Assembly: GCA_031406385.1 (NCBI GenBank)
Contig: JANOHI010000012.1
Coordinates: 7,110-71,109 of the forward strand
Reading direction: 5' to 3'
Length of the DNA stretch: 64,000 nucleotides
From: Acidimicrobiia bacterium
GTDB taxonomy: Bacteria; Actinomycetota; Acidimicrobiia; Acidimicrobiales; JANYDT01
The notes beneath the pieces were generated by a model that was given only the letters and a program-made list of their open reading frames with translations, had not been told where the DNA came from and did no database searches. Numbering within the stretch: the stretch's first letter is position 1; each line of letters starts with the position of its first letter. Shown piece by piece: positions 1 to 15,634 of the stretch. Made by a program: the position numbers and the translations under genes.

Positions 1-2
1 CC

Positions 3-941
3 TTGACGCGCCGCATCGCCGCTGATAACGGGCTTGGCGAGAAAGTCCACCATCATCACGCTCGGTCGACCGAGATCGCCCTCGACCGGCTGGCCGATGT
101 GGTTGTCTGCGATCAGATCGGCGGCCTCGTGCACGACGCCGGGATCCTTCGGTTCTTTGCCGATGCGCGCAAGCGTCTGTCATCACCCGGGGCAACGCTC
201 GTACCCGCTTCGTTCCGGATCTACCTCGCTCCGGCGTGTTTCGACGAGGGCCGCGAGGCAGTCGAGTTCTGGTCCTCACGACCGGGCAACATCGATGTCT
301 CCGCCGCACGTGTGTTCGCCGTTAACACCGAGTGGCACTATGCACGAGTCGCGGGTTCGTTTCCGCTGGCCGACGGAGCCGGCATTGCCGAGTTCTCTTC
401 CGATCACGACGAACCGATCTCGGGGAAAGCAACCTTCACCATTCATACCAAAGGGCGTATGGATGGTCTGATGGGTTGGTTCGACGCTCAGATGTCGCCG
501 TCGGTTCGGCTGAGCAATGACCCTTGGTCGCCCGAGCGCTTCGACAGGTGGTGCAATTTCTACCCGATCGAATCATCTGTCGATCTCACACCTGGCGACC
601 GAGTGGAGGTCTCGCTCGAAATCCGACCGAAGCTCAACCTCGTTGCCTGGGACATCACGGTCCGGCCCGAAGGTGGGCAAGCACAGCGATTCCGCCATTC
701 CACGCTCACCGGCACCTTCGTCACCAGAGCCTCGTTCGATCGACGGACCGAGGAGAAGGCTCCGGTACCGTCGGGCCGAGTGGAGATTGTGCGCGAGGTC
801 CTTGCCTTCATCGATGGAAGTCGTTCCCGGGCGGACATCGTGCAGGCGCTCGCTGGTCGAGTGGGTACCGACTTCTCAACGGAAGCGCAGCTGGACAGGT
901 TTGTGGGCAACTGCATTGAGCTCACGAGAGCGTTGACGTGA
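3..941 (+). CDS. PRMT-like class I SAM-dependent methyltransferase (5' end cut by window edge) with a C-terminal PqqD/RRE-like winged-helix extension
   Basis: The ORF is open from the window edge. Segments LADVVVCDQIGGLV, GATLVPASFRIYLAPA and DRWCNFYPIESSVDLTPGDRVEVSLEIRP align by eye with the post-I/double-E region, the following strand and the THW-loop/beta-barrel of protein arginine methyltransferases. The last ~55 aa (EIVREVLAFIDGSRSRADIVQALAGRVG..AQLDRFV) resemble the helical half of PqqD-type recognition elements. Confidence 0.6.
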   Translation: MTRRIAADNGLGEKVHHHHARSTEIALDRLADVVVCDQIGGLVHDAGILRFFADARKRLSSPGATLVPASFRIYLAPACFDEGREAVEFWSSRPGNIDVSAARVFAVNTEWHYARVAGSFPLADGAGIAEFSSDHDEPISGKATFTIHTKGRMDGLMGWFDAQMSPSVRLSNDPWSPERFDRWCNFYPIESSVDLTPGDRVEVSLEIRPKLNLVAWDITVRPEGGQAQRFRHSTLTGTFVTRASFDRRTEEKAPVPSGRVEIVREVLAFIDGSRSRADIVQALAGRVGTDFSTEAQLDRFVGNCIELTRALT

Positions 942-963: not shown

Positions 964-1869
964 GTGAGAGTCGACGCCACGGTCATCGGCGCCGGTGGAG
1001 TTCACATCGCGCAACGCGGCGCAGCTGCTCCCGAGCGGAAGGGCGCGCTCCGTGTGGGTCCCGTCGCCGCTGTTCGTCAGCCGATCGACGCCCCGATCGA
1101 ATCGCAGCGCGCAGACCATGTCGTGTGGCGTCGCCTCTGGGCAGGCTCTGGTCGCCTGGTCATCGACTTTGTAGGACTTGCGATCGTGCAGATCGACGAT
1201 GCTGACGGACTGGTGACGTTCGACCGCGCCTTGCCTGCCGACGTTGAGCAACATCTTCTGCTCGATCAGGTACTGCCCCTCGTGCTCGCACGGCGCGGAC
1301 ACCTCGTGTTGCATGGGGCACTGATCAGCCTTGCGGGACGCGGGGTCGTGCTCATCGGCGCATCAGGCGCGGGAAAGTCGACTCTCTCTGCGTTTGCGTG
1401 GACGCGGGGTTGGTCGGTCGGGGGAGATGACGGAACTGTTCTCAGCACAACTCGGCCGCCTCGCGCCGAGCCAACGTACGCCACCGTGCGCCTCACGGAC
1501 GAAGGCGCAGCTCTCCTGGGATTCGACCAAAGTGGGGCGCCCACCGTCGTTGGGAAGACTCGCTTCCAAGGAGATTCGGAGCGTGGACTGCTGTCAGACA
1601 GCGTCACGGTCGATCTGATCGCGGCCATTGAGCCGACGACCGACGGCTCCGCTGCTCGGATGGAATCCATCCGCGGAGTTGCTGCCCATGCGATGCTTTT
1701 TTCATCGACGTTCCATGCCGACGTCGCGATAACGGGCAATCTGCCGACGGTCATGGCTGACCTCGGCCACGTCGTCGAGACGACACGGATTGGGCGGTTG
1801 TTCGTGCCCCGCGGAATTGACGGCCTATCGGCTGCGGAACGCGTTCTGCGCCTCGAGCTCGCGCGCTGA
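964..1869 (+). CDS. HprK-related kinase-like P-loop protein (lasso-cluster kinase type), copy 1
   Basis: A GTG start lies 22 nt after the previous stop. The P-loop GASGAGKSTLSAF followed by GGDDG matches the HPr-kinase C-terminal domain layout. The stop overlaps the next start (TGATG at 1867-1871). Confidence 0.7.
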   Translation: MRVDATVIGAGGVHIAQRGAAAPERKGALRVGPVAAVRQPIDAPIESQRADHVVWRRLWAGSGRLVIDFVGLAIVQIDDADGLVTFDRALPADVEQHLLLDQVLPLVLARRGHLVLHGALISLAGRGVVLIGASGAGKSTLSAFAWTRGWSVGGDDGTVLSTTRPPRAEPTYATVRLTDEGAALLGFDQSGAPTVVGKTRFQGDSERGLLSDSVTVDLIAAIEPTTDGSAARMESIRGVAAHAMLFSSTFHADVAITGNLPTVMADLGHVVETTRIGRLFVPRGIDGLSAAERVLRLELAR

Positions 1870-2327
1870 TGTTGTTGCCGCGTTGGGTGGCCGTCAAACG
1901 ATTCGTCCACGAACTATCCAAAACGACCCGGATGAGCGCGGTCCGCGCCGTCGGCGATGGATGCGTTGTCGCCGTCACGATGAAGCGCCGGGGAGTGCGA
2001 CCACTTCTGACCGGTTTGGGCAGTCGCGGCGACGTCATCGATCCGCTCCGGGCACGGCGTGTCGCCCACGCGGCTGATGCGGGGCTGGGCCTCGTTCCCG
2101 TGCGCCCGACCTGTCTGCGACGCTCCTTGGTGCTGCTTCGGGAGTTGCGGCGGCTCGGGCTGGCCGGGACCTTGCATGTCGGCGTGAGGAGCGAGAATGG
2201 AGTGGTGCTGGCGCATGCGTGGATACAGGTCGGCGACGAAGTGGTCAACGATGACCGCGCAGTCACGGACCGTTTCTCGTCGATCGCAGCCGGGGAGCTC
2301 GAAGACCTTCTGCCCCGGTTCACATGA
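1869..2327 (+). CDS. lasso peptide biosynthesis B2 protein (transglutaminase-like leader peptidase), copy 1
   Basis: 152 aa. The Cys/His/Asp signature PTCLRRSL...LAHAWIQVGDEVVNDD is typical of lasso B2 proteases. An ATGA overlap with the cyclase gene lies at 2324-2327. Confidence 0.85.
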   Translation: MLLPRWVAVKRFVHELSKTTRMSAVRAVGDGCVVAVTMKRRGVRPLLTGLGSRGDVIDPLRARRVAHAADAGLGLVPVRPTCLRRSLVLLRELRRLGLAGTLHVGVRSENGVVLAHAWIQVGDEVVNDDRAVTDRFSSIAAGELEDLLPRFT

Positions 2328-4048
2328 GCTTCACGATCGCGACGGCGCGGGGGAGCCGGGCCGTGGAGGCGCTGAGGACCACCAACGCCCAGCAGGTGGA
2401 CCAGGGAAGTGTCGCCGTTGTGCAGCACGGAGACGCGGCGGTCGCGTGGTCGACGACCTGTCTTTGGGTCGACGTTCACGACGACGGCGACGTGCTCGTT
2501 CTGGTTGACGGCATCTTTCACGGCCAGATCGCCCGACGTGGGCGCGCGGCAGCGGTTGCCGAGCGTTTTCGGGCCGTCGGTGACCGCTTCGCCGCCGGTC
2601 TTCTTGGCGATTTCGTCGTCGTCGTGCTCGACAAGAACCGACGACGCATGCTGGAGGCCAGGGATCCCCTGGGCGTACGACCCTGGTATCAGTCCGACAG
2701 CGGCCGTCTGCACGCTGCCGCATCTGACGTTGCGTCGCTCGTCAACCTCTCCTGGGTGAACACGCAGATCAACGAACGACAGGCGATCGAATATCTCGCG
2801 AATGTCTGGCTGAGCCGTGGCGAAACGCTGTATGCCGGCGTCCGGACGCTCGCGCCCGGCGCCACGTGGGTGTCGCGGACGGACGGAGGCGACACGTTCG
2901 CGCACCATCGTTGGGATGTGGAGCCCGATGTTGCCATCACTTGGGACGATGCCGCAGAACGGTGCCGGTCCGTGCTGGATGAGGTCGTGAAGGATCGATT
3001 GGATGGATCGTTCCCGGCGACATGCGAGCTGAGCGGCGGTCTCGATTCGTCAGCAGTTGTCGGAACCGTTGTTGGCTTGGACCAACCCGATCTTTTGGCG
3101 GGCAGGCTGCTGTTCGACGGACCGACTGCCGACGAACGGGAATACTCGACTGCCGTGATCGACCACTGGCACGTGGACTCGATTGGGATGCCGCCGTGGA
3201 TACCGACGCCTGCGGAATGGGACCAATTGACGCGTCAGCTCTGTCGACCTGCTCCGGCGCCGAACTTCGTGATGTTCGAAGGCCTGCATGGAGCCATGCT
3301 TGCCAAGGGCCGCCCGGAATGCCTGACAGGGCTCGGTGGCGACGACGCGTTTGTCGCCATGGGGAACGGGAGCCGGATCGTCAGCTCGTTCCAATTGCGT
3401 CAATACAGAACGTTGCGCCAAGTCGCTGCCTGGACGGTGCGCAATCCGCGCGAGTCGTGGCGTGAGGCCGTTCGTCCGACGTTGCGTCGCTTCTTTCCCA
3501 ACGACAGCACGCCTCCGTGGGTTCGTAAGGAGGCCGCCGAAGAGGCCGGAATCACCGAACTGCTCCGGCAGCGACCCCGCGCTGTCAGCGGCATCGCCGC
3601 CATCGACGAGCGCCTCGCCAACGTGACATCGGGGTATGACGCCTCGATCCTGGAAGAAGCGGCGGCCATTCAGGATGTGACCGGCCGTCGAGCCTCACAC
3701 CCGTTCCTCGACCCTCGAATGATTACGGCGACTTACGGCCTCAATCCATGGTGGCCGACGTATGGGGGACATACCAGAGCGCTTGAGGTCGCGGCGTTCG
3801 CCGACCTCCTCCCCCCGCTCGTCAGCGGAAGGCGGACAAAAGCCGAGTTCTCCGAGGTCTTCTGGGCGCTGCGCCCGGACGAGGCTGAGGCTTTGAAACT
3901 CCGCGACGGAGTGCTAGCGGCCGCCGGTTGGCTCGATCGGACAGGCTTTGATGCGCTGTTGCGCAGCGCCTACGCCGGCGACCCATGGTCTGCGATACCA
4001 CTTGCCCAGTGTGTTGCCTTGGACCGGTGGCTGACACAAACCCTGTAG
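2324..4048 (+). CDS. lasso cyclase (asparagine synthetase B-like, McjC type), full length
   Basis: 574 aa. It carries the PP-loop motif CELSGGLDSSAVVG. The N-terminal domain is present but lacks the Cys2 glutaminase nucleophile (MSFTIA..), as in lasso cyclases. Confidence 0.85.
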   Translation: MSFTIATARGSRAVEALRTTNAQQVDQGSVAVVQHGDAAVAWSTTCLWVDVHDDGDVLVLVDGIFHGQIARRGRAAAVAERFRAVGDRFAAGLLGDFVVVVLDKNRRRMLEARDPLGVRPWYQSDSGRLHAAASDVASLVNLSWVNTQINERQAIEYLANVWLSRGETLYAGVRTLAPGATWVSRTDGGDTFAHHRWDVEPDVAITWDDAAERCRSVLDEVVKDRLDGSFPATCELSGGLDSSAVVGTVVGLDQPDLLAGRLLFDGPTADEREYSTAVIDHWHVDSIGMPPWIPTPAEWDQLTRQLCRPAPAPNFVMFEGLHGAMLAKGRPECLTGLGGDDAFVAMGNGSRIVSSFQLRQYRTLRQVAAWTVRNPRESWREAVRPTLRRFFPNDSTPPWVRKEAAEEAGITELLRQRPRAVSGIAAIDERLANVTSGYDASILEEAAAIQDVTGRRASHPFLDPRMITATYGLNPWWPTYGGHTRALEVAAFADLLPPLVSGRRTKAEFSEVFWALRPDEAEALKLRDGVLAAAGWLDRTGFDALLRSAYAGDPWSAIPLAQCVALDRWLTQTL

Positions 4049-4076: not shown

Positions 4077-4220
4077 CTACGGCCCGCTTTGGCCACAGTC
4101 GCTCATTCCGCCGACCTGAGTGACGTTCATACCGCCGCCGTCCGGGCAGCTGCCGCCCTGACCAAGGGTGAGGCTGCTGAGGGTACCGAACCGCTTCAGT
4201 GTGGGTGTCTTATATACCAT
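4077..4220 (-). CDS. lasso precursor peptide A1 (47 aa: MVYKTPTLKRFGTLSSLTL / GQGGSCPDGGGMNVTQVGGMSDCGQSGP)
   Basis: This is an internal ATG (4220) of the 74-aa ORF, with GGAG 6 nt upstream (4227-4230). The leader fits YxxPxLx3Gx5Tx exactly (Y3,P6,L8,G12,T18). The core starts with Gly and has Asp at position 8. It lies between the cyclase and ABC exporter genes. Confidence 0.75.
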   Translation of the reverse strand: MVYKTPTLKRFGTLSSLTLGQGGSCPDGGGMNVTQVGGMSDCGQSGP

Positions 4221-4327
4221 GAGAGTCTCCTGGTCGACGATGATGAAACGACCATACCTGAACCGGCCACTCTCCGCAACTGATTTTTGTTGTTCAAGCA
4301 CACACTGCGTTCCGACGCAGCCTCATA

Positions 4328-6280
4328 TCAGACCGGCTGTTCGGGCTGGTAGGCCGCCGCCTGGAGATTGAACAACCGGGCGTAGGTGCCATCGAGTTCG
4401 AGCAGCGCCCGATGCGTTCCCGACTCCACGATGTGTCCGGCGTCCAACACATAGATGCGGTCGGCGCTCGAGACGGTGCTGAACCGATGGGAGATCACAA
4501 TGACGGCCTTGCCCGCGCACAGCTGCCGAAGGCTGCCGAACAGCGCGGCTTCAGCGTCGGGGTCAAGCGACGATGACGGTTCGTCCAAGACGACCAGTGC
4601 AGCCTTGCGGAAGAAGGCTCGGGCAATTGCGACCCGCTGCCATTGGCCCAACGAGAGGTCGCGTCCGCCCGTGAACTGGGGGGCAAGAAGTGTGTCGTAT
4701 CCGGCCGGGAATTCCTCGAGGAAGTCAGCCGCTCCGGCGTCGCGTGCGGCCTCCCTCACCGCTTCTCGATCATCGGCGTGCTGCCACCGCCCGAAGCCGA
4801 TGTTCTCCGCTGCCGAGAAGAAGAAGCGGGTGTAGTCCTGGAAGACGAAGGCCACATGTTCGCGGACGCTCACGTCGTCCATCTGCTGAACATCTGAACC
4901 GTTCCACGACACCGTTCCGCGGTCTGCGACATACAGGCCGCCGAGCAGCTTGGCGAGGGTGGTCTTTCCAGACCCATTGGCCCCGACCAGTGCGATGACT
5001 TCACCCGTTCGAACGGTGACGTTCACGTCGACGACAGCGTCGTTCGGAGCATTGGGATAGCGAAACCCGAGTCGGTCGCTGCGAACGGTGAGCGGTTCGT
5101 CGGCGGCAAGATCGAAATGTGCTCGAGCGCTCATCTCGGCCTGACGATTGGCGGCGTCGCCGAGGAATCGGTCGACCTCGTGGAGGAAGGTTGTGCACTC
5201 GAAGATCATGCCGAATCCGCCGATGAGTGATTGCGCTCGTTGCGCCAAGAGCACGATGGCAGCGGCAGCGACCGCACTTTCGGCGATGGTAATCGTGCCC
5301 TCGTCGAGGAGGCGGATGAGGATCGCAAGCGTGCCGCCCATCACCACTGCGCTGATCAGCCGAGCGATCGTTCCGATCGCGAAGCGGCGGCGCCCAACTT
5401 CGCGAAGCCGCTTGATTCGGGCCGACCACAGCCCTGAGTGTCGGCTGGTGAGGTACGACGCAAGGTTGTAGCCCCGGACCTCCTTGGCGGTGTCCTTCTG
5501 ACTCAAGAGGTGAAGGAGGTAGTGGCGCTGTCGCGAGACTTCGGTCTGCTCGACCTCGAAATCGATGTTCAACAGTGTTGCCGCACGCGTCGCCAGCACG
5601 ATCGGAAGCGATCCCGCAAGGGCCACGAACAACAGCGCGGGTTGGATCATCGCCAGCGTGATGGCCACGGCAACCATGGCCAGCAGCGACCCGACCATGC
5701 CGATCAACGCCGTTGCGAGTTGCATAGGCCGAAACGTCGAGTTGGCGAGGACTCGCTCGAGCCGGTTGTGAAACGCCGAGCGGTCGAAGTCGATCAGGTC
5801 GGCTGCGGACGCAGCGCGCACAACGTCCTCCTGTGCCTCGCGAGCGAGCAGATCGGTGACCACCTTTTGCAGCTCCCCGCGCGCCAAGTTGATGATCGCC
5901 GAGATCGTGAGCAGGACAACGACGACCATGGCCCATGGCAGAGCGTCGCCGGCATCGGCGGTCTTGCCGAGGTTGACAACTCTGGTGAGGAGTTGACGAA
6001 TCGCTAGGAGCTGAGCGGCCGCCAGCAGCGAGCTGACGAGCTGAAGGACGGCGACAGCGACGAACTCCCGCCTCGCGGCGCGCATGATCAACCGTAGGGA
6101 CGACCGGAGCAAGGCAGGGAACGCTCGGAGCGAGCGTTTCTGCCGAAGGTCGACGAGCTCGTCGTACGTGAAGGTGTCTAGGTCCAACGGTTCGGGTGCG
6201 GCCGCGGTAGTCGCGCCTGAGGAATTGGCCGAAGCATCCTCGGCAGTTCCGGAGACGCCGCTTTTCATAACGTTCGTCAC
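4328..6280 (-). CDS. ABC exporter, fused permease-ATPase (McjD-like lasso exporter candidate)
   Basis: 650 aa with a multi-TM N-terminal half. It carries Walker A GANGSGKTT, signature LSLGQWQRV and Walker B LVVLDEPSSSLD. Confidence 0.9.
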   Translation of the reverse strand: MTNVMKSGVSGTAEDASANSSGATTAAAPEPLDLDTFTYDELVDLRQKRSLRAFPALLRSSLRLIMRAARREFVAVAVLQLVSSLLAAAQLLAIRQLLTRVVNLGKTADAGDALPWAMVVVVLLTISAIINLARGELQKVVTDLLAREAQEDVVRAASAADLIDFDRSAFHNRLERVLANSTFRPMQLATALIGMVGSLLAMVAVAITLAMIQPALLFVALAGSLPIVLATRAATLLNIDFEVEQTEVSRQRHYLLHLLSQKDTAKEVRGYNLASYLTSRHSGLWSARIKRLREVGRRRFAIGTIARLISAVVMGGTLAILIRLLDEGTITIAESAVAAAAIVLLAQRAQSLIGGFGMIFECTTFLHEVDRFLGDAANRQAEMSARAHFDLAADEPLTVRSDRLGFRYPNAPNDAVVDVNVTVRTGEVIALVGANGSGKTTLAKLLGGLYVADRGTVSWNGSDVQQMDDVSVREHVAFVFQDYTRFFFSAAENIGFGRWQHADDREAVREAARDAGAADFLEEFPAGYDTLLAPQFTGGRDLSLGQWQRVAIARAFFRKAALVVLDEPSSSLDPDAEAALFGSLRQLCAGKAVIVISHRFSTVSSADRIYVLDAGHIVESGTHRALLELDGTYARLFNLQAAAYQPEQPV

Positions 6281-6399: not shown

Positions 6400-9300
6400 A
6401 TGAGCATCGATAGGCGAACCGGAAACCCACTGTCGAAAGCGCCGAGAGGCCTATGGCTCGGTGTGATCACCTTGGTTGCCCTGGCCACGCTCATTCCTGT
6501 CATTGACTCAATCGTCAGCACAGTTCGCGTCTCCGCAGCGGCGCCTGAGAGCACTCAGGCTTCACCGGCGGTGTTGACTCCCTCGCCCTATTCGGTCGCC
6601 CCATGCGGTGTGCTTCGTCCTGCAGATGAGCCCAGTTCCCCGACAATCGTTCTGAAACCCCGTGTCGTATCGGCGTCGATACGCCCCGATGCGATGGTGT
6701 CGTTCGACTCCGGCCTCGTCCTCGTCGATGGTGCAGGTTCGAAGATGATGGGACTCGCCACCGACGGTACGGTGCGCTGGTCCTATGCGACCAACACCGA
6801 TTCTTCAGCCGGGGATAGAGGTTCGCTCGCAGTCGACCCATCCGGTTCGACCTACCGGGTGAAGTACCCGAACGAAGTGCTGAAGCTGAGCCCGACCGGA
6901 CAAACGCTGTGGACCGCCACCCTCAGCTCGCCAATCGCACGAATCTTCGGAACAGTAGTGCAGGGAACGTGGCGTGTTGTAGTCGTCACTTCAACATCGA
7001 CCCGAGTGCTTTCGATGGCAGGCGCTGACGTTGGCTCAGCACCCGTCAGCGGACGCAGCTCTACACCGACCGGGGACGGCGGACTGTTGGTCAGCGACGG
7101 TACGTACGTCCGAAAGTACCGTCCATCATTCGTCCCTCAATCGGTGTTCGGGTCCCCATACAAGGACAACGACCCCATGCCTGAAGGGGCTCCGTTGCAC
7201 TTCTACCAGCAAGGTGACGCGGTCGAGCTGCTTGACGGCCGAATCCTCGTGGGCGACGGAGGTTGGGGAGTTTGGTTGGTGGACAGCCGAGGGCTCGTTC
7301 TCGGTCTCGTGCCCACCGCCGAGCTCGGTGGACTGACGGAACAGCCGAAACTCGTCATCATCGGAAGCGAGCTTTACTACACGGCGGGCGCCAAGTTCAC
7401 AAACGATCAAAAGGTGCTGGCGCTGCCGATCAGCGACCTTGTTGCCCGCGCCGTCCAAAATGGTGGAGGCGCCCGACTGGGTTTCGGAGCTGGGCTCGTT
7501 ACCTCGGTCGCAGGAAACTACTTCGCACCTGGATCGCCTGCGACGGTAGAGCTCGAGCTCGACGCATGGTGGGGGAGCATCGGCGCCGCAAGCCTCCAGT
7601 ACACCGTTCGTCGATCTTCCGAAGTGGCGGCCGACGCTCCCGCGATCACGCAATCCATGGCAATCGCGCCAGGAGCTCGGCAAGCGTTAGCGCTTCCACC
7701 GCCCGTTCCGGGAGCATACGAAGTGGATGCTCGTTTGCTCGTCGACGGAACACCGGTTGGAGCTACCTGCCTCCACTACGCGATCGGTGCACCGGGACAT
7801 TCACTGAACATGGCAACGCTTCCGCCCGGCGCAGATGCCGGTGGACCGAGTGGTCCCCGGGGTGTCGCTTTGGCTGATGAGCTCGGAACTGGCTCGCACC
7901 GGATTACGTTGCATTGGAACCGGTTGCTCGACCCCGCCGGCCTCACGACATTTGACAACTATGACGCCGAGATCAAGGCCGCCGCAGCCGAGTCGGCAAG
8001 GCGGGGAGTGCCATTTAGCGTTCAGCTGGGTGAGGGCGGCGTTGAACGAGCATTCGTCGACAACGGCACATGGGAGAACCGGACCCGCGAGGTCGTGGCT
8101 CATTGGGCGCCGTACGTCGACTATTGGGAGGCCTGGAACGAACCGAACATCACCTTCGGGTCAGCCGCGGCGTATGTGGATCAAGTTCTCGTACCCTTTC
8201 GGCGAGCTGTTCGAGCAGCAGATCCCGGGGCAAGAGTGATCGGCGGCTCTCCGGTCGGCATGTCGATTCAGTATTTTCGCGAGATTGGCCAGGCTGGCGG
8301 TTTCAATTCGATGGATATCGTGGCCATCCATCCATACACCGGGCACAATAGATCCTGGGAAGAGGAGGGCGTGCCGGGTCGGATCCAAGAGCTCAAGGCG
8401 ATTCTGACAAGTAACGGCAAGAGTGCGATGCCGATCTGGATAACCGAGTTTGCATTTTGGTCGAATGGTCCGGCCAACTGGTTCGCCCAAGCAGATAAGA
8501 GTGCGCGTGTTGTCATCTGGAACAAAGCACTGGCCAGCGGCGTGTGGCAGTATTTCCTCCCCGAAGGTAGTTGGGGAAATGATGGTGTGACGTTTTCGGC
8601 AATCGAGACCGGTGGCCCGGTGAAGCCAGCCGCTCTTGCGCTCATGGAGACGAAGAACCAATTGACTGGACGCACCTTCTCCGGGTGGATTACGACGAAC
8701 ACTCCGCACACCTATGCTGCCCGCTTCGGTCCGGCGCCCGGCGGGAACGATCAGTTGGTTGTGCTCTGGGCGGACGACCAATCGTTGGATGGCACGCTGA
8801 GCACCGATCGAGCGCTCGACGCAACGCTCATCGACCAGTACGGAGCGAGCGGACCCCTCGCCCTATCGGAAACGGAAACGAAGCTTACGTTCCGGTCATC
8901 GGTGCAGTATGTGCGACTTCCCGCCGACGCCGATCTGAGTATCAGCGCGGGGTCCGCATGGGGCAAGAACCTGGCCGCAACCGAGGCGGGCGGCGTGGCG
9001 GTCGCCTCGAGTAGCAGCCCTTGGAACCCGCCGTCGGCCGCCATCGACGGCATCGCTGACGCTCGCGGCGTTGGAGAATTCCCTGGTTCACCCGCGTGGG
9101 CGTCGGCGGTTGGCGATCCGCTGCCAACGTTGACGGTCACGTTGTCACCATCGGCTTCTGTGAACACGGTGTTGTTCTCGACTGCCGGTTTGGGGAGCGT
9201 GCTTTCCGGTGTGCGCGACATCGATGTTGAGGTCCAAGCGTCTGACGGCACGTGGGCGTATGTCGGCGGTGTGCGCGATCTGTTCTTCGAGCGCGCCTCT

Positions 9301-10404
9301 GCCATCACATTCCCAGCGAGAACCGCCAAGGCCGTGCGTCTCAAAGTCTTGCGGGTGAACTTCAGTGGTTATGCGGGAGGCGCAAAGCCTTGGTTCTGGC
9401 CGCCGCCGGGCAGCCCGGATCTCGAACTTCCGGGATACGCGCTCTATGGCCCGGCGATCATCCGAGAGCTCGAGGTGTATGCCGCGACAGCTACAGGCCC
9501 GGCGCCTGCGACGACCACGTCATCAAGCTCTACGACTACGACCTTCGGAACATCGACCACGACGTCGCTGATCCCGCCGAGCACCACGAGCAGCACTGTG
9601 GCCCCTGCACCTTCTACGAGCGTGCTCACGGTTCCGGGTGTGGTGAGCACGATCGGACCGACGAGCTCTGTGGCGCCGTCAGTCACGCCGTCATCCATAC
9701 CCTCGACAACGTCCACTTCGCTCACGCCGAGCAGTTCCACGTCAGCTCCACCGACCACGACCACTGCACCGAGCTCGTCGACCACGACCACACCACCGAC
9801 CACCACCACTGCACCGAGCACCACCACTGCACCGACCACGACCACACCGACCACGACCACTCCACCGACCACGACCACTCCACCGACCACCAGCGCACCG
9901 ACCACGACCACTCCGCCGGCCACGAGCGCACCGGCCCTGACAGTCCCGGTGTACGTGTACACGCCGCCCCCGGGACAGACGTCACTGAGGCTGCCGCCAC
10001 TTTCGCCTCCCGAGCCCGTCGGGAATCCTGCTCCGCCATCCTCGACCAGTACGCCAACGACGATCACGAGCATTCCCGAGCCTCTGGTCTTTGCCACGGG
10101 CCGTACCGATGTGATTGTGACAAACACCTTAAATGCCGCGGGAGTGACTTCGGCGGTGCCGACCTCCACCAGCGCCAAGCGAAGGACATCCACGACGATT
10201 CCGTCGTTGCTCCCCCTGGTTCCGGCGCGCAAGGAATCCGCAAGCAAAACTCTTCCTCGCAAAGCGAGCCCGACAACGACGGCCCCGAAGGCCAAGAGGA
10301 AGGCCGCAGCGACCTCATCGCGCGCTGCGTCCCGCAAAGCCGTTCGCCAGACGACCCGGACCACGTCTCGTTCAACAACACGCGTCTCCACTCCGAATCG
10401 CTGA
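6400..10404 (+). CDS. large secreted multidomain protein: clan GH-A-like glycoside hydrolase + discoidin (F5/8 type C)-like domain + Thr/Pro/Ser-rich tail
   Basis: It has an N-terminal TM/signal (LWLGVITLVALATLIPVI). The motifs YWEAWNEPN and PIWITEFAF match the acid/base and nucleophile Glu contexts of clan GH-A. A discoidin-like segment ends at VRLKVLRVNF. A ~300-aa T/P/S-rich tail ends in a Lys/Arg-rich stretch. Confidence 0.8.
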   Translation: MSIDRRTGNPLSKAPRGLWLGVITLVALATLIPVIDSIVSTVRVSAAAPESTQASPAVLTPSPYSVAPCGVLRPADEPSSPTIVLKPRVVSASIRPDAMVSFDSGLVLVDGAGSKMMGLATDGTVRWSYATNTDSSAGDRGSLAVDPSGSTYRVKYPNEVLKLSPTGQTLWTATLSSPIARIFGTVVQGTWRVVVVTSTSTRVLSMAGADVGSAPVSGRSSTPTGDGGLLVSDGTYVRKYRPSFVPQSVFGSPYKDNDPMPEGAPLHFYQQGDAVELLDGRILVGDGGWGVWLVDSRGLVLGLVPTAELGGLTEQPKLVIIGSELYYTAGAKFTNDQKVLALPISDLVARAVQNGGGARLGFGAGLVTSVAGNYFAPGSPATVELELDAWWGSIGAASLQYTVRRSSEVAADAPAITQSMAIAPGARQALALPPPVPGAYEVDARLLVDGTPVGATCLHYAIGAPGHSLNMATLPPGADAGGPSGPRGVALADELGTGSHRITLHWNRLLDPAGLTTFDNYDAEIKAAAAESARRGVPFSVQLGEGGVERAFVDNGTWENRTREVVAHWAPYVDYWEAWNEPNITFGSAAAYVDQVLVPFRRAVRAADPGARVIGGSPVGMSIQYFREIGQAGGFNSMDIVAIHPYTGHNRSWEEEGVPGRIQELKAILTSNGKSAMPIWITEFAFWSNGPANWFAQADKSARVVIWNKALASGVWQYFLPEGSWGNDGVTFSAIETGGPVKPAALALMETKNQLTGRTFSGWITTNTPHTYAARFGPAPGGNDQLVVLWADDQSLDGTLSTDRALDATLIDQYGASGPLALSETETKLTFRSSVQYVRLPADADLSISAGSAWGKNLAATEAGGVAVASSSSPWNPPSAAIDGIADARGVGEFPGSPAWASAVGDPLPTLTVTLSPSASVNTVLFSTAGLGSVLSGVRDIDVEVQASDGTWAYVGGVRDLFFERASAITFPARTAKAVRLKVLRVNFSGYAGGAKPWFWPPPGSPDLELPGYALYGPAIIRELEVYAATATGPAPATTTSSSSTTTTFGTSTTTSLIPPSTTSSTVAPAPSTSVLTVPGVVSTIGPTSSVAPSVTPSSIPSTTSTSLTPSSSTSAPPTTTTAPSSSTTTTPPTTTTAPSTTTAPTTTTPTTTTPPTTTTPPTTSAPTTTTPPATSAPALTVPVYVYTPPPGQTSLRLPPLSPPEPVGNPAPPSSTSTPTTITSIPEPLVFATGRTDVIVTNTLNAAGVTSAVPTSTSAKRRTSTTIPSLLPLVPARKESASKTLPRKASPTTTAPKAKRKAAATSSRAASRKAVRQTTRTTSRSTTRVSTPNR
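9745..9925 (+). repeat. imperfect short tandem repeats (ACCACGACCAC / CCGACCACC units) encoding the (T)nP(P) linker
   Basis: Reiterated ccgaccacgaccac(t/a)cc units are visible. They translate to TTTTPPTTTTAPSTTTAPTTTTPTTTTPPTTTTPP. Confidence 0.8.
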
Positions 10405-10488: not shown

Positions 10489-11619
10489 TCATGTTCGCGC
10501 CTCGAGCAGTCTCTCGATTTGCCTCATAATCTCCGTCCACTCGTACGGTGCGGCTGCTTGAGGTGCCTTCGACGACCACGCTGCGAGGGTGTCGCCACTC
10601 AGTGCGTCGCCGAGCAGCAGCGCCAATTCATCTACATCGTCGGGGTTTTGTTGGAGCAGTCCCGCACCAGAACCGGCGATCGCTGAAGCCGCTCCTGCAA
10701 GGCTGGTCGTTATCACTGGTATCCCCATGGCGAGTGCTTCGACGATCACGATGCCGAACGGCTCGTACTGGGTCGGGAGTAGAAAGAGATCGGCAGCGGC
10801 GAAGGACTTCCCGACGTCGTTGGTCGGGCCGTGCCAACGCACGCGGCCCTCGAGGCCGAGCTGCTGGATAAGCCGGGCGTAGTCGGAGATGTCGGCCTTG
10901 CCCACCACGTGGACCTCGACGCGTTGATCGGCGGTGAGTGCGACCGCCCGCAAGAGCACCCCGAAACCCTTTCGGTGAAGTTCGTTGCCGACGAAGAGCA
11001 CTGCGATGGCTTCGTCGGCGATGCCCATGGCTGCCCGGGAGGACGCACGTTCGCTGACGCGTCGCTCGGCCGAGAACTCGGAAGCACTGAATCCGTTGGG
11101 TATCACCACGATCGCTGATGGATCGACCCCGTAGTGCGCGATCAGGTCCGCCTTCACCTGTTCGCCGACGACCACGACCTTTCGAGACCCAGAGGCCCTG
11201 AAGTAGATCCGCTCGAGGCGCAGAAGGGTTCGGTGGCGAGGCATCAAGAATCGAACCCATGCGGGTATCGACAGTCCTTTGACCGGGATAGGTCGGCCTG
11301 CCCGGAGCCACGCTCGGTGCACGCTTCCGACCATCAACAAATCACCGGGGGGGCAGTTCGCACCGAGAGTCACCACGCGATCGACCCCGATCGTGCGCAA
11401 CGCCTCGGCGGCAAGATTGCGGAACTTCGCCGGGCGTTGAGCATCGGCGCGCTCAATCTCGATATGGCGGATTCCGGCCGGCAGGAGTTCGGGCGACTCC
11501 AGTTCCCCTCCGACGAACCACGTGGTGTGTCGTTCGCCGAGATGCCGCAACAACTCCCAGGCGACGCGTTCGACCCCGCCCCGTCGGTGGGCGCCACTGA
11601 ACACCACGGCGACCTTCAC
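10489..11619 (-). CDS. glycosyltransferase family 4
   Basis: 376 aa with a GTG start. It has the N-terminal MKVAVVFSGAHRRGGVERV and the C-terminal GT-B motif EPFGIVIVEALAMGIPVITT. A GTGA overlap with the upstream GT4 gene lies at 11616-11619. Confidence 0.9.
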   Translation of the reverse strand: MKVAVVFSGAHRRGGVERVAWELLRHLGERHTTWFVGGELESPELLPAGIRHIEIERADAQRPAKFRNLAAEALRTIGVDRVVTLGANCPPGDLLMVGSVHRAWLRAGRPIPVKGLSIPAWVRFLMPRHRTLLRLERIYFRASGSRKVVVVGEQVKADLIAHYGVDPSAIVVIPNGFSASEFSAERRVSERASSRAAMGIADEAIAVLFVGNELHRKGFGVLLRAVALTADQRVEVHVVGKADISDYARLIQQLGLEGRVRWHGPTNDVGKSFAAADLFLLPTQYEPFGIVIVEALAMGIPVITTSLAGAASAIAGSGAGLLQQNPDDVDELALLLGDALSGDTLAAWSSKAPQAAAPYEWTEIMRQIERLLEART

Positions 11620-12701
11620 GCGCAGACCGACCGATAGAGCGCGGCGAGCTTGTCCGCGTGCGTCTCAATCGAGTAGCGCTCGCGCTGAACTGCCTGGAGC
11701 CGGGCACCCAGTTGGGGCCGGTCCGGGCGCTCGGCCGTGTGGCGCAGCGCAGCCCCCAACGCGTCGGGATCACCTGCCGGGTAGAGCAGTTCGGGGAAAT
11801 CCCGAAGTATCTCCCGGTGGCCTCCACCGTCGGCGGCCAGCACCACAAGACCGTCGGCCATCGATTCGGCGACGCTGAGCCCAAATGGTTCGTCTGATCG
11901 GGGGGCGAGTTGAAACGCCGATGCCGCCCGGATCGGACAAAGGTCGGTCTGAGCTCCAACGAACTGAACCGAACCTTTCACTCCCAAGGTGCCGGCCAGT
12001 CGTTCCAGCGATGGGCGCTCTGCTCCATCGCCGGCGATGACCAGTCGCCAACCTTCGCTCCCGAGCTGGGAGCGCGCCCATCCACGGATCGCTTCATCGG
12101 TTCGCTTCTCGCGTTCGAGGCGCTGCGCAACCAGCACCTGTCTTCCGGCGTTCGGGACGAGTTCGGCGCTCGCAACGCCGTTTGGGATGACGATTGTGGT
12201 TCCCGGGACCCGTTGAGCCACATAGTCGCTGATTGCGATCTGCGCAGACAGCCGTGACGAAATGAAACGATCGGCGGAGCGGGGAATTCCGCGTGACTGA
12301 GCAAAGTGAAGTGTCGCAACCACCCGTGATCGCCGCAGTGCGCTCACTCCCACGGCAACCATCTCTGCTGCGGTCATGTGGGCGTGGATGACATCCGCCC
12401 GACCGCTTCGCAGCAGCGCGTACGCAACTGCTGGGGAACTCGTCGCCTCCCGGTGTTTGACGCTCTGGGGCAGTGCTGAACGCATGCGGACGGGATCTCC
12501 CCCGATCACTTCCACGGCGAACCCGCGTGCGACCAGTGCCGGGGCCACCATCGTTATGTACCGTTCGACACCGGCAAATGCGTCGGATCGCACGACGTGG
12601 ACTACTCGCATGGACGGATGCTTCTCATCCCCGTCGTCGTCGTCTGCCCGGCCCTGCCACGTTCGCACGCTATCGGGGCTTCGGTATTCGTCGGACAACA
12701 C
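11616..12701 (-). CDS. glycosyltransferase family 4 (start may be the internal ATG at 12611, MRVVHVV..)
   Basis: It carries MRVVHVVRSDAFAGVERY and EPFGLSVAESMADGLVVLAADGGGHREIL. The longest start lies 3 nt after the stop of the cyclase-like gene. Confidence 0.85.
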   Translation of the reverse strand: MLSDEYRSPDSVRTWQGRADDDDGDEKHPSMRVVHVVRSDAFAGVERYITMVAPALVARGFAVEVIGGDPVRMRSALPQSVKHREATSSPAVAYALLRSGRADVIHAHMTAAEMVAVGVSALRRSRVVATLHFAQSRGIPRSADRFISSRLSAQIAISDYVAQRVPGTTIVIPNGVASAELVPNAGRQVLVAQRLEREKRTDEAIRGWARSQLGSEGWRLVIAGDGAERPSLERLAGTLGVKGSVQFVGAQTDLCPIRAASAFQLAPRSDEPFGLSVAESMADGLVVLAADGGGHREILRDFPELLYPAGDPDALGAALRHTAERPDRPQLGARLQAVQRERYSIETHADKLAALYRSVCA

Positions 12702-12704
12702 CGG

Positions 12705-13883
12705 CTAGTGACGGATCGCCGACTTGGTCGTAGCCAAGGTCGATAGCCACGCCAGGTGCAGCAACATCGAGGTGTTGGCGTGCGGCTCGGATTCGGTTGA
12801 CCAGTGAGTCTTCAACCACGACGCGTCGATGCCTTCGGGGAGTCCGGTGCCGTCCCAGCCACGTGCGAACTCGCGAACAGCCGGCCCAAACATCGCGCGG
12901 GTGAGGTGGGATTTCGTTTCCCGGCGGAGCAGTGCCGGCGGGAGCCGATCTCGGAAAGCAGTTTCTATGAGTCTTCGGCGTCCGGAGTGCCGATAGGGCG
13001 GTAGAACGAAAGCCGCCTCCTTGACGATATCCGGGTCCATGAGAGGACTTCTCACCTTGAGTCCACACCACTCCCCGAACGCACCCATGTTGTGACGGAT
13101 CGTCTGGACACTTGGTCTGCCGAGGTAATACGTGACCCAGCTACGAGCCGAGAGGGGCTCTCTCGCCGCCTCAATCGAGCCCTTCTGTATCGCCTCAGAC
13201 AGCAACTCTTCGCTGAGCCAAGGAAGATCCCATCCGAATCGATTCTGACGTTCGATCATCCTCGCCCGTAGGGAAACTGGCGCAACCATGAAGGCAAGAT
13301 CTCGTGGCACCGAGCGAAGGTCCCAAGCGAAAATCTTCGCCTTCATCTCCGGCAGAGCCCCTAGCCGCCGAGGACCAAAGACTTCATCGCCACCTTCGCC
13401 CGTAAGCAGAACACCCGGCGCTAGTGAGCGCCAAATGTCAGCCCTGGTCAGTAGCCCTGGCGGCCAAACTGCGCCAAGGTCACGAAGCGCTTGTTGTGGT
13501 CCCGGCCCGAGCAGATCCAGATCCGGGTTCGTCCGAACGATCGCATCGGTGATCCCGAGAAAACCCAGGACCAATTCCTGGTAGCGCGTCTCGTGCGTTT
13601 CCGTCAGGTCGGGAAAACGGAAGGTGACCGGAACCGGAGGATCATGGGAGGAGGAGCGGCAAGCTTCGGCTGCGGCAGCGAGCACAACGGACGAGTCGCA
13701 GCCGCCGGAGAACTCGACGTATAGCGGTTGGTCGGTGAGTTCACGAGCGACGCGCTCGACCAAGCACGCCCAAAGATCGCCACACCGCTCTTCGCCCGCC
13801 GGCGGGAAGGCAACGCCACCGGCCCAAGAGAACGGGTAGTTGAAGAGCTGTTGGTCACGGTCAGGCGACAGAACCGAGACCAC
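12705..13883 (-). CDS. asparagine-synthetase-domain protein: lasso cyclase homologue lacking the N-terminal domain
   Basis: 392 aa with a GTG start. The PP-loop YVEFSGGCDSSVVL is already at residue ~55, so there is no room for the ~200-aa N-terminal domain. It lies 31 nt downstream of precursor A2. Confidence 0.8.
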   Translation of the reverse strand: MVSVLSPDRDQQLFNYPFSWAGGVAFPPAGEERCGDLWACLVERVARELTDQPLYVEFSGGCDSSVVLAAAAEACRSSSHDPPVPVTFRFPDLTETHETRYQELVLGFLGITDAIVRTNPDLDLLGPGPQQALRDLGAVWPPGLLTRADIWRSLAPGVLLTGEGGDEVFGPRRLGALPEMKAKIFAWDLRSVPRDLAFMVAPVSLRARMIERQNRFGWDLPWLSEELLSEAIQKGSIEAAREPLSARSWVTYYLGRPSVQTIRHNMGAFGEWCGLKVRSPLMDPDIVKEAAFVLPPYRHSGRRRLIETAFRDRLPPALLRRETKSHLTRAMFGPAVREFARGWDGTGLPEGIDASWLKTHWSTESEPHANTSMLLHLAWLSTLATTKSAIRH

Positions 13884-13914: not shown

Positions 13915-14103
13915 CTACGACGCAAATTGAAACCCGCCAACACCATTGGGAAGATCTCCTGGCTGCAAGGGTCCGCCCTGGACCGAGTAGAAACCGTCGG
14001 ATTTCGGGAAGAGCGGAGACTGCGCCAGCGTGAGGTCCTGCACAGACCCGAGGGTCTGGATCGCGGGAGCTTCGTAGGGCAGCTTGCTAGAGGAGTTGTT
14101 CAT
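13915..14103 (-). CDS. lasso-type precursor peptide A2 (62 aa: MNNSSSKLPYEAPAIQTLGSVQDLTL / AQSPLFPKSDGFYSVQGGPLQPGDLPNGVGGFQFAS)
   Basis: The leader fits YxxPxLx3Gx5Tx (Y10,P13,I15,G19,T25) and aligns position by position with the A1 leader, including the shared LTL(G/A)Q junction. It sits directly upstream of the cyclase-like gene. The C-terminal residue is Ser. Confidence 0.7.
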   Translation of the reverse strand: MNNSSSKLPYEAPAIQTLGSVQDLTLAQSPLFPKSDGFYSVQGGPLQPGDLPNGVGGFQFAS

Positions 14104-14145: not shown

Positions 14146-14664
14146 GTGTCCCCTAGGGGATTGCGCTATCCACTAGGCCGAGGAGCCGGGCCTAGGGTGC
14201 TCCAGGTGGAGCTCGTCGAGACCCTTTCCGCGTTGTGCCGAACCTGTGGCTCGTGCTGCGATGGCTCACTGTTCGAGCTCGTAGTGCCGTCGGAGGGGGA
14301 CCTCTTCGAGGTTCGCCAGCCGTGCGAATTCCTTGCGGACCTGACGTGTCAACGGTACCTCGAGCGCCCTCGGTCGTGCCGGAAGTTCCACTGCGGCGTT
14401 CTCGGCAGATTCGCAGATGGGAGCAGTTCCGCAGACGAGGCTGGAGATGCGATCCGGAAGTTTCGTGAGGTCGTTTCCGACTTGTCCGCTCGCCTTCCGG
14501 GCGATCCCGGGAAGGCATTGGCTCGCCGTATCTATGAGTCCGAGCCAGAGTTGATGCTGAGGGCGCGAAACGGTGAGTCCGTTGCCGTCGATACGCTGTT
14601 TCTCGTCGCCGGCTACCGCGAACTCAGGCTGCGATTCATTGGTTCCTCTGACTGGAACGGATGA
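14146..14664 (+). CDS. YkgJ/CxxCxxCC-family cysteine-cluster protein (start possibly GTG at 14197)
   Basis: CRTCGSCCDGSLF ... CEFL..CQRYLERPRSCRKFHC matches the putative zinc/iron-chelating CxxCxxCC domain pattern. AGGAG at 14181-14185 favours the 14197 start. Confidence 0.7.
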   Translation: MSPRGLRYPLGRGAGPRVLQVELVETLSALCRTCGSCCDGSLFELVVPSEGDLFEVRQPCEFLADLTCQRYLERPRSCRKFHCGVLGRFADGSSSADEAGDAIRKFREVVSDLSARLPGDPGKALARRIYESEPELMLRARNGESVAVDTLFLVAGYRELRLRFIGSSDWNG

Positions 14665-15634
14665 TCCCGCCGGACGGTGAACCGCTCACGATGTTCGCCA
14701 CTGCCTCGAACAGCTCCGCGTTGCGCTCTCGATCGTAAGCATCAGCCCACGGCACGTCCATCACGGCGACCGGCAACCGTGCGGACAGCGCAGTCGCCGC
14801 TTGGAACTCCTGCATTTGATAGGTCGGTCCGCTCCACCCGATGAGACGAGACGACGGGAGCAACCAACGAAGTGCCTCGAGGGGGTCGGCAATCCGCAAG
14901 GTCACTTCAGAGGCGTCTCGGGACGCCCGAGGGATCACAATGCCAGCGAGCTCACCCGAACCGTTGTCGATCGCCTCTGGTCTAACGGCGATCCGGCCAT
15001 CGGCGGTACGGCGCACGACCCCGCGTATGTGATCCGCCAGGTAGCCTGCCCTTTCGCGGAGGCGAAGTTCGACGAGACCGGTCGACACGGTGAGCGAGCC
15101 GATGCCTTGGATGTTCTGAACGCAGGAAACATCGTCGGCGACCAGTTTCGCACCTTCGGATATCAGGGTTGCGGCCACCGTGCTCTTGCCGACCCCCGAA
15201 GGACCGGCGATGGCCACTCGAAATCCGTTGATCGCGACCGTCGTTGCGTGGAGGCAGTACGCACCCCTCAGGGTGGTGAGCGCGGCGAAGACCGCCCCCT
15301 GGAGTAGCACTGCGGCGAAGTCCGCATCATCGCCTGGCGTGAGCACCACCCGGACGGAGCGCAATTGCTCGTCCACCCAGAAGTCCGCATGGCCCGCATA
15401 GCGCATGCAGTATCCGCTCGTCGGTGTGCGAGTGATCGTGAGTGGCCAGTGCAGCGGCGAGTCGAACAACTGCTCGCCGACGGGCGGGTCCTCCGGTACT
15501 TCGGCCCATTCGATCGGCCCTACCGAAACGTCCGCTGGGCCCGACGTCTCCAGCGCGGAGATGCGAAGGCTTGATGTAACGGCCAAACCGTGCAACGAAT
15601 ACGTCGACGGTTCGTCCGAGAGGTCAGTTCTCAC
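14636..15634 (-). CDS. HprK-related kinase-like P-loop protein, copy 2
   Basis: 332 aa. The P-loop IAGPSGVGKSTVAATL followed by VADDV gives the same architecture as the 964-1869 product. Confidence 0.75.
   Translation of the reverse strand: MRTDLSDEPSTYSLHGLAVTSSLRISALETSGPADVSVGPIEWAEVPEDPPVGEQLFDSPLHWPLTITRTPTSGYCMRYAGHADFWVDEQLRSVRVVLTPGDDADFAAVLLQGAVFAALTTLRGAYCLHATTVAINGFRVAIAGPSGVGKSTVAATLISEGAKLVADDVSCVQNIQGIGSLTVSTGLVELRLRERAGYLADHIRGVVRRTADGRIAVRPEAIDNGSGELAGIVIPRASRDASEVTLRIADPLEALRWLLPSSRLIGWSGPTYQMQEFQAATALSARLPVAVMDVPWADAYDRERNAELFEAVANIVSGSPSGGIIRSSQRNQ

Follow-up and report, generated by a model that had tools for sequence, protein, structure and literature searches.

A small open reading frame (ORF) lying tail to tail with a lasso cyclase gene raises the question of whether it encodes a lasso peptide precursor and, if so, which kind of lasso peptide its cluster would make. 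The ORF is found in a stretch of 64,000 nucleotides from an Acidimicrobiia bacterium (GenBank assembly GCA_031406385.1, contig JANOHI010000012.1, positions 7,110 to 71,109 of the forward strand), the whole of which is referred to here as the window. The answer that appears probable from the sequence is that the ORF, running from 4220 to 4077, is a lasso peptide precursor with a Gly1-Asp8 ring and a Cys6-Cys23 pair of class III type, matured by B1, B2 and C proteins. The gene, its conservation, its invariant residues, the co-variation of its cysteines and its gene neighbourhood are matters of direct observation.

The first point to establish is the gene itself, whose elements are the following:

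4077 to 4220, minus strand: precursor gene A, with leader codons 4220-4164 (MVYKTPTLKRFGTLSSLTL), core codons 4163-4080 (GQGGSCPDGGGMNVTQVGGMSDCGQSGP) and stop codon 4079-4077
4227 to 4231, minus strand: Shine-Dalgarno sequence AGGAG of the precursor gene, 6 nt before the ATG at 4220

Including its TAG stop, the ORF comprises 144 nt and 47 codons, whose translation gives a 19-residue leader and a 28-residue core, exactly the peptide that a first-pass annotation of this DNA had put forward. That annotation had also named a different translation start as a finding that would undo the prediction. The ATG at 4220 stands as the start because a Shine-Dalgarno sequence is located 6 nt upstream of it and because conservation is limited to the coding part. 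In nucleotide alignments with homologues the coding part is aligned with third-position wobble, while the distant homologues diverge upstream of the Shine-Dalgarno sequence; purine-rich equivalents of the latter are present at the same place in the homologous loci L001, L009 and L011. A longer ORF from the GTG at 4301 (74 residues) was ruled out, given that the Shine-Dalgarno sequence precedes the ATG at 4220 and that the upstream part is unconserved in distant homologues. The lengths assigned by gene callers to the precursor homologues vary, some being of 72-80 residues (P0003, P0004) and others of 46-57. The GC content at third codon positions is 0.75, similar to that of the neighbouring genes. 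A structured RNA or terminator around the gene was also considered and discarded, as no promoter-like or terminator-like sites were found there and the fold z-score is -0.01; the only such element around the precursor is a small hairpin of 6-7 bp after the stop codon of the ABC exporter gene.

The leader fits the pattern Y3-x-x-P6-x-L8-x3-G12-x5-T18-x, with Thr at position -2, and a search of the window translated in all six frames finds the strict motif a single time, versus 0.065 occurrences expected from 200 shuffles. No Pfam family matches the ORF. A peptide search of the protein database retrieved four close relatives of the precursor (78-87% identity), from an Acidimicrobiia metagenome-assembled genome (MAG; GCA_031381685.1) and related metagenome assemblies. 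Synteny extends over their loci, with genes for PqqD (B1), a methyltransferase, a ScmC/HPr-kinase-like protein, B2 and the cyclase, and with the small ORF and an ABC transporter gene on the opposite strand. In a scan of reference genomes a single related locus was detected, in an Acidimicrobiia MAG with 91% cyclase identity. Across the wider set of fetched loci, a convergent ORF of 45-68 residues with the same leader stands behind the cyclase gene in 21 of the 21 that reach far enough (directly after it in L001-L003, L007-L013, L015-L017 and L019-L024), so that the absence of a conserved small ORF from homologous loci, which the first-pass annotation had regarded as grounds for rejection, is not what is seen. 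In an alignment of 20 precursors, Y-17, P-14, L-12, G-8, L-3, T-2, G1 and D8 are invariant, which includes the Y, P, L, G and T-2 of the leader motif YxxPxLx3Gx5Tx recognised from the outset, and G4, S5, C6, G9, Q16, G18 and C23 are at least 90% conserved. The family signature consists of the leader Y-x-x-P-x-L-x-x-[LF]-G-[ST]-[LF]-x-x-L-T-[LM], followed by the core G1-x-[GN]-G4-[ST]5-x-x-D8-G9. Judged by these sequence features, the small ORF is a genuine, conserved lasso peptide precursor gene. Its family is widespread, mainly in Acidimicrobiia and other Actinomycetota metagenome genomes.

Which residues would close the ring? Lasso precursor cores start with Gly, Ala, Ser or Cys and carry Asp or Glu at positions 7-9, and the present core offers Gly1 and Asp8. 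These two are the only invariant amine/carboxylate pair in the 20 aligned precursors; the other acidic residue of the core, Asp22, varies and is replaced by Ser, Glu, Gly, Thr or Asn in relatives. Because G1 and D8 are invariant and Asp22 is not conserved, a Gly1-Asp8 lactam closing an 8-residue ring is predicted, and the same ring proposed by the first-pass annotation gains support from the invariance of both residues. In a wider family of 68 cores, further ring and ring-adjacent positions are near-constant, namely G4 (67/68), S/T5 (67/68) and G9 (59/68). The predicted monoisotopic masses are 2538.983 Da for the linear core, 2520.973 Da for the lactam and 2518.957 Da for the lactam with a disulfide.

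The next question is whether the enzymes needed for such a product are encoded alongside the precursor. Three of them lie within the window:

2324 to 4048, plus strand: lasso cyclase C, an asparagine-synthetase homologue of 574 residues (Asn_synthase, E 2e-19), with the SGGLDS PP-loop at residues 237-242
1869 to 2327, plus strand: leader peptidase B2, a transglutaminase-like Cys protease of 152 residues (Transglut_core3, E 3e-19)
4328 to 6268, minus strand: ABC exporter D, 646 residues from the ATG at 6268 (ABC_tran, E 1e-29), directly upstream of the precursor gene and on the same strand

The cyclase carries both Asn_synthase and GATase domains, and its PP-loop motif is invariant among homologues. 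At E <= 1e-20 its homologues form 129 clusters, and 114 of the 120 listed show 44-59% identity; those listed derive mostly from Acidimicrobiia/Actinomycetota MAGs, in addition to Frankiales MAGs and a Blastococcus genome. B2 scores 62.7 bits against lasso_biosyn_B2 (NF033537), above the cut-off of 33, and a pattern search yields Cys82 (TCLRRS), His116 (AHAW) and Asp128 (VND) as candidate catalytic residues, the last being the more provisional. The exporter is 96% identical to its orthologue in L002 and occupies the same position in the homologous loci. As for B1, the PqqD gene is found upstream of the methyltransferase gene in syntenic loci, and L036, a 4.4-kb Logan contig that shares 4126 bp of identical sequence with the window and reaches 244 bp further left, holds the last 13 B1 codons (LIDAKLLRRIVGG, followed by the stop) directly before the methyltransferase start. 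L002 carries a B1 orthologue at 99-100%. Because L036 carries this B1 end adjoining the methyltransferase gene, the lasso cluster is almost certainly complete, in the order B1 (off the left edge), methyltransferase, HPr-kinase-like protein, B2, cyclase, precursor and ABC exporter. The set of helper genes suggested earlier for expression (964-4048) has to be amended on two counts: it lacks the B1/PqqD leader-recognition protein, encoded just left of the window, and the gene at 964-1869, which it includes, encodes an HPr-kinase-like tailoring candidate and no core maturation enzyme.

If the pathway runs as in the lasso systems already characterised, the PqqD-type B1 protein, whose gene lies just off the left edge of the window, would bind the YxxPxL leader, and B2 (1869-2327) would cleave after Thr-2/Leu-1. 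The cyclase C (2324-4048) would then use ATP to activate the Asp8 side chain and link it to the Gly1 amine, the 8-residue ring being formed round a pre-folded tail. The ABC transporter (6268-4328) would export the product, and Cys6 in the ring and Cys23 in the tail would oxidise to a disulfide, giving a bicyclic lasso of class III type.

The threading has next to be considered. Gly accounts for 10 of the 28 core residues (36%), and the core holds no F, W, Y, R, K or H; in the family, 54 of 68 tails are free of aromatic residues and the median Gly content is 29%. The early remark that the core is Gly-rich and without bulky plugs is thus true of the window core and of the family at large. Steric locks are usually bulky aromatics, and replacing such residues causes unthreading (PMC13352647), which speaks for an alternative in which the lactam forms and the tail fails to thread stably, so that the product would be an unthreaded peptide, branched-cyclic or bicyclic with a disulfide bridge, or a lasso held only by an intact disulfide. 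This outcome is considered unlikely. The cyclase, B1 and B2 are canonical, and the conserved x-G-G-x stretch, flanked by the largest residues and then followed by Cys, is the pattern expected of a defined threading point; moreover, in 9401-LP1 disulfide and plug together hold the fold (PMC5974421). The conserved tail reads N-[NV]-[TN]-Q-[LVMFY]-G-G-[MG]-S-x-C-G-[VQT]-S-G in the 20-precursor alignment, with five residues after the tail Cys in the window core and 0-16 in relatives. If the peptide is a threaded lasso, as we favour, the likeliest threading point would place Gly18-Gly19 in the ring plane, between Val17 (Leu, Met, Phe or Tyr in relatives) and Met20. Cys23, three residues below Met20, would reach Cys6, and the disulfide would be the main lock, since Val and Met are presumably small for an 8-residue ring. 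The geometry so proposed resembles that of 9401-LP1, where Trp16 is followed by Cys18 (PMC5974421).

What bond, if any, would the two cysteines form? A profile search of 1.84 billion representative proteins gave 57 matches at E <= 0.001; when these are pooled with the locus-derived precursors, 72 different cores fitting G-x-x-G-[ST]-x-x-D result. P0133 and P0143, profile-search matches that are repeat proteins, were discarded as false positives. The 72 cores hold two cysteines in 44 cases, none in 24, four in one and one in three, and among the three single-Cys cores two are seemingly frameshifted or truncated and one belongs to a 145-residue protein. A ring Cys (position 6 or 7) is accompanied by an odd number of tail cysteines in 37 of 39 cores, compared with 1 of the 33 cores devoid of a ring Cys. 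That cysteines co-occur in pairs argues for Cys-Cys bonds and against thioethers or free thiols. Three kinds of core can be distinguished in the family: those with a ring-tail pair (class III type, including the window core), those with a tail-tail pair (class IV type, e.g., the Blastococcus-like contig L008) and those free of Cys (class II type, e.g., L020). Class III is defined by one ring-to-tail disulfide, and dedicated oxidoreductases are dispensable for lasso disulfides (PMC9266682, PMC13352647). The window core thus probably carries a ring-to-tail Cys6-Cys23 disulfide of class III type, as suggested by its sequence relatives. Of the ring-to-tail pair in the first-pass annotation, Cys6 in the ring holds, in line with the co-variation of ring and tail cysteines, and the tail partner is to be corrected: it is residue 23, while residue 21, the position originally given, is Ser.

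It could be argued that the cysteines take part in some other cross-link or modification, such as a lanthionine-like thioether with a dehydroalanine (Dha) derived from a Ser that the kinase-like protein would phosphorylate, S-methylation or metal binding. A kinase-like protein is a constant partner, both Ser5 and Ser21 are conserved close to the Cys residues, and a Dha-containing lasso peptide from a hybrid system has been cited (PMC13352647). In addition, the methyltransferase gene accompanies the Cys6...tail-Cys cores in 8 of 8 covered loci and is absent from L008 and L020, two covered loci with cores that have no ring Cys, a sample that is small and phylogenetically confounded. The even number of cysteines in 69 of 72 cores and the joint variation of ring and tail cysteines are nevertheless expected for Cys-Cys and not for Cys-Dha bonds. 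Furthermore, the kinase-like gene is equally found with Cys-free cores (L020), no lyase or cyclase gene for such a link is seen in the cluster, and the methyltransferase has the fold of an N-methyltransferase, that of protein arginine methyltransferases (PRMTs). A non-disulfide fate of the cysteines accordingly has only a slim chance of being correct, and the Cys6-Cys23 disulfide is retained in what follows.

The precursor gene is also under purifying selection. When the window gene was compared with 15 others by the Nei-Gojobori method, the ratio of non-synonymous to synonymous substitution rates (dN/dS) was 0.17-0.43 against the 10 family precursors with estimable dS, for which the proportion of synonymous differences (pS) was 0.24 versus the near-identical L001 and 0.57-0.74 versus the other nine. 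Against four further relatives pS reached 0.76-0.87, at which dS is saturated and the ratio not computable, and against the divergent precursor of L008 dN/dS was 0.81. That the ORF might be a chance open frame or a decayed remnant from which the cluster makes nothing, a view for which its mere 47 codons, the missing Pfam match and a leader score just below the NCBIfam cut-off could be invoked, is scarcely credible in the face of its conserved position and sequence, its Shine-Dalgarno sequence and purifying selection across loci with cyclases just 44-59% identical, and of partner genes that are all intact.

Several points weigh against the assignment of the locus to a class III lasso peptide and have to be set beside this evidence. 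The precursor scores 17.9 bits (E 0.0023) against the NCBIfam model lasso_leader_L3 (NF033521), a near miss 1.1 bits below the cut-off of 19, and the cyclase scores 136 bits against NF033535, far under the strict equivalog cut-off of 525. The B1/PqqD gene lies outside the window, just off its left edge. The profile search for the wider set of cores was built on the ring, so that the frequencies of G1 and D8 in that set are partly circular, and the association of ring and tail cysteines (Fisher p = 6e-17) is measured by a statistic that ignores shared ancestry. Lassos with 8-residue rings normally use aromatic plugs (PMC13352647), none of which is found here, and stable threading is not guaranteed. 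Finally, lactam, threading and disulfide alike rest on analogy.

A further question is what the remaining conserved genes of the cluster would contribute, together with a nucleotidyltransferase gene located farther away:

964 to 1869, plus strand: HPr-kinase-like/ScmC-like P-loop protein K, 301 residues, with His117, GASGAGKST at 132-140 and Asp155-Asp156; a candidate peptide kinase
1 to 941, plus strand: S-adenosylmethionine methyltransferase M, assigned to the PRMT fold, with the C-terminal 312 of its 380 residues in the window
29963 to 31153, minus strand: PF14907 (NTP_transf_5) nucleotidyltransferase (E 1e-34), 24 kb from the precursor and inside a polysaccharide locus

The K protein matches Hpr_kinase_C at E 4e-5 and HprK_rel_A at E 1.5e-7, scores that fall short of the curated cut-offs, and its orthologue in L001 matches PF27840 ScmC. 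It retains the His-Lys-Asp-Asp motif of lasso kinases (PMC9266682). Its gene is present in the window and in each of the 18 fetched loci whose sequence covers the stretch upstream of B2; L017, L019 and L027, which end within B2 or just upstream of it, are uninformative. The distant locus L034, with a different gene order, also has a K homologue (26% identity, E 3e-13). For the lasso kinases that have been characterised, the phosphate acceptor is a Ser at the C-terminus that is strictly conserved (PMC9266682, PMC8498205). No such acceptor is available here: the window core ends in ...GQSGP, and a terminal Ser is found in just 2 of the 68 family cores. Membership of the paeninodin type fails on this residue, and the target of K, should it be a kinase, would have to be internal, given that the core ends in Pro. 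An internal target is possible, and the near-invariant Ser/Thr5 is the obvious candidate. A gene of the PF14907 family adjoins the lasso clusters of L008, L009, L011-L013, L028, L030 and L034.

The methyltransferase is available at full length in P0189 and L036:43-1185, the latter showing the start of the gene. By sequence it matches PRMT6 (E 5e-18), and its AlphaFold model (pLDDT 92.3, pTM 0.81) superposes on PRMT2, PRMT6 and CARM1 over ~320 residues (Foldseek E 2e-25), so a type I PRMT fold can be assigned with confidence on the basis of the model. Its double-E loop has the form D...D (CDQIGGLVHDAG), with CDQIG.GLVHDA aligned to SEWMGyGLLHES in PRMT6 and both Glu replaced by Asp, and its THW loop reads D-R-W when aligned to a PRMT1 sequence. 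The presumed substrate, the precursor core, contains no Arg. An added helical appendix of ~55 residues is present at the C-terminus. The C-terminal ~100 residues were also considered as a second RiPP (ribosomally synthesised and post-translationally modified peptide) recognition element (RRE); the Pfam PqqD match is weak (E 0.09-0.15), hhalign against the B1 of the cluster gives a probability of 0.3%, and the model displays only the short helical appendix, so this idea finds no support. Besides the two loci lacking a ring Cys mentioned above, the methyltransferase gene is missing from L025 and L026, whose precursors lie off the contig. Reviews describe the known lasso methyltransferases as O-methyltransferases whose target is the C-terminal carboxylate or a ring Asp (PMC8498205, PMC13352647), and a literature search yielded no record of a lasso cluster with a PRMT-like enzyme.

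The most likely role of K and the methyltransferase is to tailor the peptide, the best candidate targets being Ser/Thr5 and the N-x-T-Q-x-G-G tail motif; the two genes would imply modifications without a described precedent among lasso peptides. A bolder proposal, which is improbable and offered as speculation, is that the G-x-x-G-[ST]-x-x-D family constitutes a distinct lasso branch that needs the HPr-kinase-like protein on an internal residue, most plausibly Ser/Thr5. If this were true, the PRMT-fold D...D enzyme of the Cys6 subfamily would perform a methylation new to RiPPs, for instance on Asn/Gln of N-x-T-Q-x-G-G; added groups or PF14907 phospho-glycosylation would, along with the disulfide, replace the steric plugs; and the peptides might be functionally tied to exopolysaccharide loci (10-35 kb in the window, L008 and L034).

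Beyond the cluster, the surroundings of the window offer a number of separate observations. Adjoining the ABC exporter gene, 6400-10404 (plus strand) encodes a protein of 1334 residues with weak glycosyl-hydrolase-core and galactose-binding-domain matches; a gene for 1313 residues stands at the matching place in the closest MAG locus, L001, and is not found in more distant loci. A second candidate lies farther along:

13915 to 14103, minus strand: second lasso-like precursor, MNNSSSKLPYEAPAIQTLGSVQDLTL followed by AQSPLFPKSDGFYSVQGGPLQPGDLPNGVGGFQFAS, scoring 19.2 against the NCBIfam lasso leader cut-off of 19

It ends in Ser, like the substrates of paeninodin-type kinases, and its first acidic residue is Asp10, with no acceptor at positions 7-9. 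Its neighbours (14636-15634, 12705-13883 and 10489-12701, all on the minus strand) include an HPr-kinase-like protein, 25% identical to the first, and two GT4 glycosyltransferases, and it adjoins a 392-residue truncated Asn-synthase-like protein with no Pfam glutamine-amidotransferase match. No B2 or PqqD was detected near it. Between this second lasso-like cluster and the glycosyltransferase genes, 17999-19279 (plus strand) encodes a Mutator-family transposase (PF00872, E 3e-118), which overlaps an ORF matching Glyco_transf_61.

The lasso cluster borders a polysaccharide-biosynthesis locus of ~10.5-35.5 kb, with several GT4, GT2 and GT61 glycosyltransferases, two Wzy_C proteins of polymerase/ligase-like type and two CbiA/Wzz-like proteins. 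The lasso loci of L008 (1-5300 and 12000-14100; Blastococcus-like) and L034 (2394-3646 and 10645-14474; a distant metagenome contig) likewise stand amid polysaccharide genes, of the glycosyltransferase, Wzz, Bac_transf, NusG-like and UDP-sugar types. The association of lasso clusters with polysaccharide loci is recurrent. A literature search returned nothing relevant on lasso, PqqD or HprK genes in connection with exopolysaccharide, or on the GSCPDG motif, and found, in the library searched, no report on lasso peptides from Acidimicrobiia.

Why should such a locus matter? Class III is the least understood class of lasso peptides, with two characterised members, one of them lacking a known cluster (PMC9266682). 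The locus supplies a precursor of class III type, its conserved cluster in complete form and natural variants by the dozen, some of them Cys-less or with a tail-tail pair, and the family is a naturally occurring test case for the replacement of plugs in an 8-residue ring by a disulfide or a tailoring group. In turn, a kinase-like protein free of the Ser rule and a PRMT-fold enzyme whose presumed substrate lacks Arg point to undescribed lasso tailoring chemistry. The producers are uncultured Acidimicrobiia.

How does the locus compare with known lasso systems? The ring of BI-32169 reads GLPWGCPSD. Like the window core, BI-32169 (Streptomyces, PDB 3NJW) starts with Gly1 and carries Cys-Pro at positions 6-7 before the ring Asp (GQGGSCPD in the window), and it has a single tail Cys, so that one ring-to-tail disulfide is expected. 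On the other hand, it differs in having a 9-residue ring, three Trp and a C-terminal tail Cys, whereas the window core has an 8-residue ring and no aromatics. The comparison with the single-disulfide topology of BI-32169 drawn by the first-pass annotation is accordingly upheld in the class III pattern of the cysteines and not in the terminal position of the second one, as five residues follow Cys23. Their enzymes cannot be compared, because the BI-32169 gene cluster is not known (PMC9266682). As a separate observation, the core of a distant family member in L034 (7088-10409), GGPGSCPDGGESDNNNVNGNFGGQC, is like BI-32169 in carrying Cys6 and a Cys, here Cys25, at its C-terminus; the gene order of this locus is NTP_transf_5, ABC, cyclase, A, kinase-like and PqqD, with no transglutaminase-like B2 gene called.

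BI-32169 and 9401-LP1 are the only characterised class III members (PMC9266682, PMC13352647, PMC5974421). In 9401-LP1 from Streptomyces sp. ADI94-01, Cys5 of the ring forms a bond with a Cys of the tail, and this disulfide helps to hold the fold (PMC5974421), which resembles the arrangement proposed for the window core; both clusters are of the actinobacterial kind, with B1 and B2 split and an ABC transporter encoded. The differences concern the aromatic-rich core of 9401-LP1 (AFGPCVENDWFAGTAWIC), with its Trp16 plug and C-terminal Cys, and its cluster, which contains nothing beyond A-D (PMC9266682), while the window cluster has conserved kinase-like and PRMT-like genes.

With paeninodin, ThcoA, SyanA and pseudomycoidin the window cluster shares an HPr-kinase-related P-loop protein with His-Lys-Asp-Asp residues, and the PsmN-like PF14907 family of pseudomycoidin also accompanies many family loci. 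Those kinases use a C-terminal Ser (PMC9266682, PMC8498205), in contrast to the window core, which ends in Pro, and their peptides, which belong to class II, derive from Firmicutes or Proteobacteria, unlike the window core. The lassomycin/StspM and lihuanodin types resemble the window cluster in placing a methyltransferase dependent on S-adenosylmethionine inside a lasso cluster. The known enzymes are described in reviews as O-methyltransferases (PMC8498205, PMC13352647), whereas the window enzyme has a predicted type I PRMT fold with a D...D loop and faces a core without Arg; by its fold it does not match the lassomycin/StspM type, in which an O-methyltransferase modifies the C-terminal carboxylate.

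The kind of system is therefore a known one, and standard lasso-cluster rules, based on an Asn-synthase homologue, a transglutaminase-like protease and PqqD, would flag the locus. The novelty lies in the way its features are combined: a cysteine pattern of class III type with a non-terminal tail Cys in an aromatic-free, Gly-rich core, joined to an obligatory kinase-like protein to which the C-terminal Ser rule does not apply, a methyltransferase of PRMT fold and an uncultured Acidimicrobiia source.

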